7,332 nucleotides of DNA from a virus (Duplodnaviria > Heunggongvirae > Uroviricota > Caudoviricetes), in the IMG/VR virus record IMGVR_UViG_3300022692_000022, one strand, 5' to 3'. Numbering within the stretch: position 1 is the stretch's first letter; each line of letters begins with the position of its first letter. The notes beneath the pieces are model-generated. The model had not been told where the DNA came from and searched no databases. It worked only from the letters and a program-made list of their open reading frames with translations. Made by a program: the position numbers and the translations under genes. Below are positions 1,292 through 1,579 of this stretch, in pieces.

Positions 1292-1579
1292 CCCGACCGG
1301 GGGGGTATCATTCGGCGTAAAAAACGATCGCTCCGGACACCGCGCCCCCTCTCACGCAGAGAAAAAATTCCCGTTTCAGGGCAGTTAACATGTTAACTGG
1401 CTGTCCGGGCATTTTTGCGGTTTTTATCTTTATTATTCAGTTTGTTGCGCGGAAAAAATGTTAACTGGCTTTTTCAGCAAATGTTAACCAGGCAGCAGTT
1501 AACATTTGCGGCATGAGACGCCGGGAAAAATGGGCTGAACCATACCCGGCTGAGTGCGTTCTGGACCCGGGAGGAGGCT
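1292..1579. other. Intergenic region between HNH and terS; candidate cos/packaging-initiation region
   Basis: 288 bp of non-coding sequence at the position where HK97-like cos phages carry cos. It contains a G7 run (1299-1305), a GC-rich segment (1292-1360), an AT-rich T-tract segment (1411-1457) and the GTTAAC repeat array (1382-1509). The exact cos cleavage site cannot be identified from sequence alone. Confidence 0.4.
1382..1509. repeat. Array of GTTAAC-centred palindromes and direct repeats (five copies of core ATGTTAAC/GTTAACAT)
   Basis: Read directly: an 18-bp perfect palindrome CAGTTAACATGTTAACTG (1382-1399); a 13-bp direct repeat ATGTTAACTGGCT at 1390-1402 and 1458-1470; and an inverted repeat GCAAATGTTAAC (1477-1488), 9-bp spacer, GTTAACATTTGC (1498-1509). 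GTTAAC occurs five times within about 125 bp here and only once elsewhere in the window (13-18). Confidence 0.75.

Follow-up and report, generated by a model that had tools for sequence, protein, structure and literature searches.

The stretch of DNA analysed here (7,332 nucleotides, hereafter the window) is a Caudoviricetes record, IMG/VR IMGVR_UViG_3300022692_000022, and this report concerns an array of GTTAAC-centred repeats within it. An earlier note, made by a model from the letters of the sequence, had placed the array between an HNH endonuclease gene and terS, the gene of the small terminase subunit, and gene annotation (HNH gene at 926–1291, terS at 1580–2143) bears out that placement. 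The features of the region are given below by position in the window, with the strand where one applies and the basis of the assignment in brackets; positions with a plus sign count from the left genome end, which we place at 1351.

684–881, minus strand: DUF3950 (YlcI/YnfO) protein, ribbon-helix-helix (RHH)-like (open reading frame (ORF) annotation)
926–1291, plus strand: HNH endonuclease, the packaging accessory nuclease of HK97-type cos systems (Pfam PF01844, PHROG 589)
1298–1304: G7 run, left edge of a family-wide cos block; candidate cosQ-like or accessory site (alignment)
1341–1350: putative cosN cohesive end CGCGCCCCCT, 10-nt 3′ overhang (homology to the mapped ends of phage Lys8385Vzw)
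1361–1366 (+11 to +16): A-tract, kept in all members of the TerS family (alignment)
1382–1399 (+32 to +49): sites 1 and 2, forming the 18-bp perfect palindrome CAGTTAACATGTTAACTG (repeat search)
1400–1459: T-tract segment, predicted to be intrinsically curved (GC content 0.28–0.38)
1456–1467, plus strand: site 3, AAATGTTAACTG (exact core, invariant in 40 array versions)
1477–1488, plus strand: site 4, GCAAATGTTAAC, left arm of an inverted repeat (exact core, invariant)
1498–1509, minus strand: site 5, GTTAACATTTGC, right arm of the inverted repeat (exact core, invariant)
1398–1579: lineage-specific 182-bp segment with T-tracts, sites 3–5, and a second Shine-Dalgarno (SD) and start context (alignments; absent from most relatives)
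1580–2143, plus strand: terS, Terminase_2 family (Pfam PF03592, 35.7 bits against a cut-off of 26.1)

Structure and position of the array

GTTAAC starts at 1384, 1392, 1460, 1483, and 1498 in the array, and the sixth copy in the window lies at position 12; the expected number for the window is 0.95, and none of 200 shuffles reached six. Within the 128 bp of the array, the local base composition predicts 0.037 copies, the Poisson probability of five or more is 5e-10, and the highest count among 200,000 local shuffles was three. The density described in the earlier note (five copies in the array and one elsewhere) is thus exact by both count and shuffling. Its five 8-bp cores are five exact copies of ATGTTAAC in the orientation −, +, +, +, −, so that sites 1 and 2 and sites 4 and 5 form inverted pairs, with site 3 standing alone between them. 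The larger repeats that it listed were all recovered as well, namely the 18-bp palindrome, the direct repeat (1387–1402 and 1455–1470, 13 bp exact), and the 12-bp inverted repeat (1477–1488 and 1498–1509) with its 9-bp spacer.

If transcribed, this inverted repeat would form a hairpin with a 9-nt loop (1477–1509), and the array might then act as an RNA-level element, for example a late-transcript hairpin for terS translation or transcript stability. However, the predicted fold is no more stable than that of shuffled sequence (z = −0.97), an Rfam scan gave no match, and the promoter and terminator scan returned no terminator-like site and just two weak promoter-like matches (1487–1458 on the minus strand and 1014–986 inside the HNH gene). 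Moreover, the cores stand in both orientations as DNA palindromes, and the array is kept in elements in which no terS follows it (see below). We regard an RNA-level role as exceedingly improbable.

The T-tract segment (1400–1459) has a predicted curvature of approximately 65 degrees per 60 bp, at the 99.9th percentile of the window, and an AA/TT periodicity of 10.5 bp (p ~0.001). The consensus of integration host factor (IHF), WATCAANNNNTTR, had no match within one mismatch in 1400–1460, and the segment therefore has no counterpart of the lambda I1 site by this measure. Of the "bend or IHF-type site" proposed in the earlier note, a strong bend is predicted, but the IHF site was not found.

The physical ends of a close relative fix the position of the array. 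The Shiga toxin (Stx) 1 phage Lys8385Vzw was induced, and PhageTerm gave 3′ cohesive ends with cos = CGCCCCCCCT (Zhang et al. 2021, PMC7946995). Its record, MT225100, ends with ...GGACACCGCCCCCCCT (in longer form ...CGATCGCTCCGGACACCGCCCCCCCT) and begins with CTCACGCAGAGAAAAAATTCCCGTTTCAGGGCAGTTAACATG (in longer form CTCACGCAGAGAAAAAATTCCCGTTTCAGGGCAGTTAACATGTTAACTGG...), which equals the window from 1351 onward; the phage carries an identical five-site array. Because the ends of this near-identical phage were mapped there, we place the cohesive end of the window element at 1341–1350 and its left genome end at 1351. By this homology, the array spans +32 to +159, the cores lie at +34, +42, +110, +133, and +148, and terS starts at +230. 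The array thus sits between cosN and terS just inside the left end, as lambda cosB does, and the 10-nt 3′ cohesive ends, known through Lys8385Vzw, are of the HK97 type. The earlier note had stated that packaged ends mapping far away would speak against a packaging role; the virion left end of Lys8385Vzw lies 31 bp upstream of the array. The phi330 record carries a remark on "cohesive ends" that gives no usable end position, and the phi330 paper does not mention cos.

Origin of the array and conservation of its cores

Relatives of TerS were found by an alignment-based scan of genome contigs; a scan with the single TerS protein confirmed none. The homologues, approximately 45–50% identical, come from 20 Enterobacterales genomes and Salmonella phage FSL SP-016, and they share a DNA block of ~105 bp that runs from a G-run through GGACACCGCGCCCCCTCTCACGCACAGAAAAAATTCCCC to GGAGGGTGTAAAC/ATGTTAACAG, where the slash marks the terS start. 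Most relatives hold a single near-palindrome, GTaAAC-ATG-TTAAC, that contains the terS start codon (GTTAAC-GTG-TTAAC in Citrobacter), and the Leu2 codon of TerS is TTA in 19 of the 21 loci. In most relatives the putative TerS site overlaps the start of terS itself.

The window follows the family block up to 1397, and its next 182 bp have no counterpart in that block; the SD and start recur, in decayed form, at 1567–1590, and the start motif of terS has decayed to GTGCTGAC. The alignments point to an ancestral state with one near-palindrome holding the terS start codon, to which the palindrome of sites 1 and 2 is homologous. Because the relatives hold one start-codon palindrome and the window adds 182 bp, the five-site array is a lineage-specific expansion, in the Stx-phage lineage, of a family-wide site. 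Neither the start-codon ancestry of the motif nor the expansion had been seen in the earlier note.

When viral contigs were scanned for the cosN pattern, 40 distinct array versions were obtained, two of them satellite copies, in which 0 of 38 core columns and 40 of 86 spacer columns are variable (Fisher 1.2e-8). This set required at least four copies of GTTAAC, and the count was therefore redone on loci picked by length class alone: all five cores were present in 42 of the 44 loci, and the other two had 0–1 of five together with a different TerS, with no intermediates. The conservation of the repeats in homologous elements, which the earlier note had proposed to check, thus holds for these same-length loci but not for most TerS relatives, with their single palindrome.

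The array probably arose by duplication of the terS start context (ATG TTA ACx, Met-Leu-Thr), a view based on comparison of the loci, and the repeats could then be neutral relics of that duplication of the terS 5′ end with no present function. The motif is the start context in 19 of 21 relatives, and the window carries the decayed second SD and start. Relics should decay, yet it is the spacer columns that vary and the core columns that do not; the cores change all-or-none, the motif has been lost from the very copy at which terS now starts, and all five cores are kept in satellites that have no terS. We consider it very unlikely that the repeats are relics.

Co-variation with TerS and retention in satellites

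Residues 1–56 of TerS (nt 1580–1747) form a helix-turn-helix (HTH) DNA-binding domain in the AlphaFold2 model (predicted local distance difference test score >90, helices at residues 19–25 and 33–41), as expected of Terminase_2 (SPP1/SF6 G1P-like) small terminases, which have an N-terminal HTH. Foldseek matched this N-terminal domain to the DNA-binding domain of SF6 TerS (4zc3; TM-score 0.84, root mean square deviation 1.6 Å). We propose the HTH as the putative reader of the cores.

A comparison that bears on this proposal comes from E. coli CFIAFB20190157 (locus L086), in which the five-site layout is the same and every core is GTTTAT or GTTTAC (ATAAACATGTTTAT; AAATGTTTATA; AAATGTTTACA-9-GTAAACATTT). 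Between the window and L086, the DUF3950 protein is 100% identical, the HNH protein and the N-terminus of TerL, the large terminase subunit, are each 99% identical, and the cosN block is identical; the array region is 74% identical and TerS 76% identical. Within the first 60 residues of L086 TerS, seven of the eight substitutions fall at residues 19–35, which in the AlphaFold model cover the HTH from helix 2 through the turn into the beginning of helix 3. In a second lineage, L222, the spacers have diverged, the flanks differ, and the array segment is just 85% identical, yet the GTTTAT/GTTTAC cores are retained, as are the changes R19, E25, E30, S32, and C35 in TerS. The switched-core variant is rare, being present in 11 genomes. 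Other TerS sub-lineages have the same cosN block and other repeats in the array position: two copies of AAAGTTACAC with TerS ...SEKTARVKGWQL, approximately seven copies of AAAGTTACAC and a T-rich stretch with TerS ...SGKTARVKGWQL, and two or three copies of AAAGTTAAAG with TerS ...EEKTASQQGSKL or ...AEKTASAAGARL. Purely as a hypothesis, residue 32 of TerS may tend to follow the core type, with T accompanying GTTA and S accompanying GTTT. The repeats were confirmed in both orientations, as in lambda cosB, and we infer TerS binding from the co-variation.

The array also occurs in satellites. L089 is a phage-inducible chromosomal island (PICI)-like element of ~9.5 kb in E. coli CH427, located between yljB and clpS (NZ_CM166357.1 639961–649600); it encodes an integrase, an HTH regulator, YlcI/YnfO, Icd, DUF4222, a RepA helicase, and a protease-capsid fusion, and it has no terS. 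Its cos region (L087 1463–1680) holds cosN and all five GTTAAC sites, with intact cores and spacers 81% identical, and 29 complete E. coli genomes have this same version. A second satellite, L090 (GPEC1186, near fis, NZ_CM142789.1; L088 1500–1715), holds cosN and a mixed GTTTAC/GTTAAC array (ATAAACATGTTTACA and AAATGTTTACA plus four GTTAAC cores, GGTTAACA, GTTAACTG, GTTAACAT, and GTTAACTC), followed by a capsid-like ORF; judging by its cores, helpers from two specificity groups may be able to package it. The satellites L094–L096 (1380–1510) and L097 (1210–1500) have TerS homologues of their own (P0061, P0053), and in them the same cosN block is followed by their own repeat, AAAGTTACAC (two or approximately seven copies), in place of GTTAAC; these satellites carry a D5_N primase or AAA_25, or AlpA. 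The L097 array has a T-rich stretch after site 1 similar to that of the window. PICI satellites also exploit lambda-type packaging (the lambda-type Rpp paper, PMC6739421), in a cos system that differs from that of the window; the HE-PICI paper describes another cos system, not the window's. Since the array is kept in elements that need just a packaging signal, its retention argues for a packaging role and not for the control of terS.

This bears on the alternative raised in the earlier note, that the array is an operator for a regulator of terS or the late genes, such as the DUF3950 (YlcI/YnfO) RHH-like protein. Short palindromic repeats do resemble operators, a gene for DUF3950 is found 400 bp upstream, and the two satellites with this array type, L089 and L090, also encode YlcI/YnfO. 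However, the DUF3950 protein is unchanged in L086, where all five cores differ; in L222 its gene is frameshifted and the array intact; most relatives lack the gene and keep the motif; and in the satellites no terS follows the array. There is also no credible promoter, the sole nearby match (1487–1458, minus strand) lying within the array and overlapping cores 3 and 4. Neither promoter overlap nor co-variation with a regulator was thus found, and an operator function is not supported; we hold it to be very improbable. The DUF3950 (YlcI/YnfO) gene accompanies the phage packaging region and also the regulatory region of satellites.

The array might also serve packaging with its cores bound by a factor other than TerS, such as the HNH nuclease, TerL, or a host nucleoid protein. 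That it adjoins cosN and is retained by satellites fits any packaging factor, and binding of the cores by TerS is deduced from comparison. Against the phage-encoded candidates, the HNH protein and the TerL N-terminus are 99% identical across the GTTAAC and GTTTAY lineages, and it is TerS that differs, mainly in its HTH. A host factor would leave the coordinated switch of five cores within E. coli unexplained, and for a host nucleoid factor in particular there is no IHF consensus in the T-tract segment. We judge a non-TerS factor unlikely.

The multi-site, cosB-like TerS platform proposed in the earlier note is supported by the position at the left end, the conservation of the cores, the co-variation with the TerS HTH, and the retention in satellites, and we put at about 0.8 the probability that TerS reads the array as the cosB-type packaging-recognition element of a 3′-cos, HNH-dependent lambdoid phage. 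Several points weigh against this reading. The ends were mapped in a near-identical relative, with one mismatch in the overhang, and are transferred to the window element by homology. The match between HTH and repeat motif is at the level of classes, with no clean one-to-one code: AAAGTTAAAG is common to two different recognition helices, and E30 also occurs with GTTAAC. The curvature estimate, which depends on the wedge parameters used, is approximate. The assignment to TerS draws on position and comparative genomics, and, by analogy with HK97 (see below), part of the recognition could lie at the conserved A-tract (+11 to +16), upstream of the array.

On a TerS-read cosB-type element, the following order of events would be expected. 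The N-terminal HTH domains of an oligomeric TerS would bind the five cores, and the curved segment at 1400–1459 would let one TerS assembly touch both the first pair and sites 3–5. This assembly would place TerL and the HNH nuclease on cosN, ~30–40 bp to the left, where a staggered cut would leave the 10-nt 3′ overhang CGCGCCCCCT, and packaging would then run rightwards through the array into terS. The cores and the TerS HTH would act as a specificity cassette that can be swapped, and copied by satellites, analogous to the cosB/Nu1 pairs of lambda and phage 21.

The packaging module, known systems, and implications

The remaining annotated genes of the window are the following.

211–552, plus strand: TonB_C lipoprotein (ORF annotation)
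2140–3513, plus strand: terL, nuclease/ATPase, with a 100-base run of N masking 2586–2685 (Pfam PF03354, PF20441)
3577–5514, plus strand: prohead protease–major capsid fusion (ORF annotation)
from 5783, plus strand: portal (ORF annotation)

The gene order HNH-cos-terS-terL, with an HK97-like terL, is that of HK97-type cos systems. The DNA of the window is 93–99% identical to the packaging module of the enterohaemorrhagic E. coli (EHEC) lambdoid phages BP-4795, 2851, YYZ-2008, and 1717, and many Stx1a/Stx2 phages also carry the module at 93–99% DNA identity; by sequence, the window is the module with which EHEC lambdoid prophages of the Stx/BP-4795 type package their DNA. Of 5,426 complete E. 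coli genomes, 1,288 contain the intergenic region, with as many as seven copies in one genome.

Two features flank the cohesive end on its left. Conservation of the cos block begins abruptly at the G7 run (21 loci from many genera), which could be a cosQ-like site, a termination site, or an HNH site; a run of G7–G9 lies ~40–48 bp before the cos cut both in the TerS family of the window and in HK97. At 1327–1330, 11–14 bp before the cohesive-end sequence, a GATC (Dam) site lies within CGATCGC, which is kept in the majority of relatives, with CGACCGC and CAATCGC as common variants.

Lambda cosB (R3-I1-R2-R1) is among the closest known systems. It shares with the array its place between cosN and the gene of the small terminase, a short way in from the left cohesive end, as well as several short repeats in both orientations, a bend after the first site, and a span of ~130 bp. 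The pair formed by lambda and phage 21 (cosB and the gpNu1 N-terminus) is also similar, with specificity residing in the repeats and the N-terminal domain of TerS and with cosN and TerL shared. The differences are as follows: TerS of the window has a Terminase_2 (SF6/SPP1-like) HTH and not the winged helix of gpNu1, with PF03592 as its only Pfam match; the overhangs are 10-nt 3′ and are made with an HNH partner, whereas those of lambda are 12-nt 5′; each core is 8 bp long and a palindrome by itself (GTTAAC); and the bend appears to be intrinsic, with no IHF consensus, unlike lambda I1. These differences in TerS family, end chemistry, and IHF site place the array outside the lambda cosB family, although it would work like lambda cosB.

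HK97 shares with the window the order HNH-cos-terS-terL, the 10-nt 3′ overhang, a G-run (G9) that precedes the cut by ~45 bp, and an A/T-tract shortly past the cut, followed by terS. Among phages with this genome layout, it alone has a cos TerS-DNA complex of solved structure, in which TerS (gp1) binds a single 15-bp site at +15 to +29 that includes an A-tract and threads DNA through its ring (PMC11331095). The A-tract of the window (+11 to +16) is comparable in position to the one inside this HK97 site. However, HK97 TerS has no homology to TerS of the window (E = 1.2), the window thus has no gp1-type TerS, and HK97 has no GTTAAC-type repeat array and starts terS at +50. Because the TerS proteins are unrelated, recognition of a single site in the manner of gp1 was set aside as the main model. 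Short repeats of the AATGAT/ATCATT type occur directly upstream of the HK97 G-run (L085 620–680; G-run 685–693) and in L009, L011, L013, L014, L017, and L020, among class-A loci without an adjacent HNH gene; in the window, the HNH gene occupies the place of these repeats.

The small terminases (G1P) of SPP1 and SF6 share with that of the window the family PF03592 and, by the Foldseek match to 4zc3, the DNA-binding fold. The SPP1 protein forms an oligomeric ring with HTH domains on its periphery, which binds bent DNA and a set of short repeated boxes. SPP1 and SF6 differ in that they package by the headful (pac) mechanism, with imprecise ends and with boxes on both sides of the cleavage site, whereas a close relative of the window has defined cos ends and all repeats of the window lie on one side; the arrangement is thus not that of a pac site.

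An element of this kind is to be expected in a cos phage, but the array appears to be undescribed in this abundant group of phages: neither a full-text search with the palindrome nor one combining GTTAAC, terminase, and cos, with subscription literature outside their scope, gave a relevant paper. DNA recognition by HTH-type small terminases is still debated, and the natural variants GTTAAC, GTTTAY, GTTACAC, and GTTAAAG, each with a matched TerS HTH, offer material for its study. Knowledge of the recognition element tells which DNA can be mobilised by these phages and by satellites mimicking them, and it is a handle for cos-plasmid transduction tools. More tentatively, and at somewhat less than even odds, the array and the TerS HTH may together define discrete, swappable packaging-specificity groups that share one cosN/TerL/HNH machinery and are exploited by satellites, which may have taken three routes: a copied array without terS (L089), a mixed array (L090), or their own TerS and repeats (L094, L097). 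If so, the array would decide which satellites Stx-type prophages mobilise, and the groups would form a natural series for how ring-shaped HTH small terminases read DNA.
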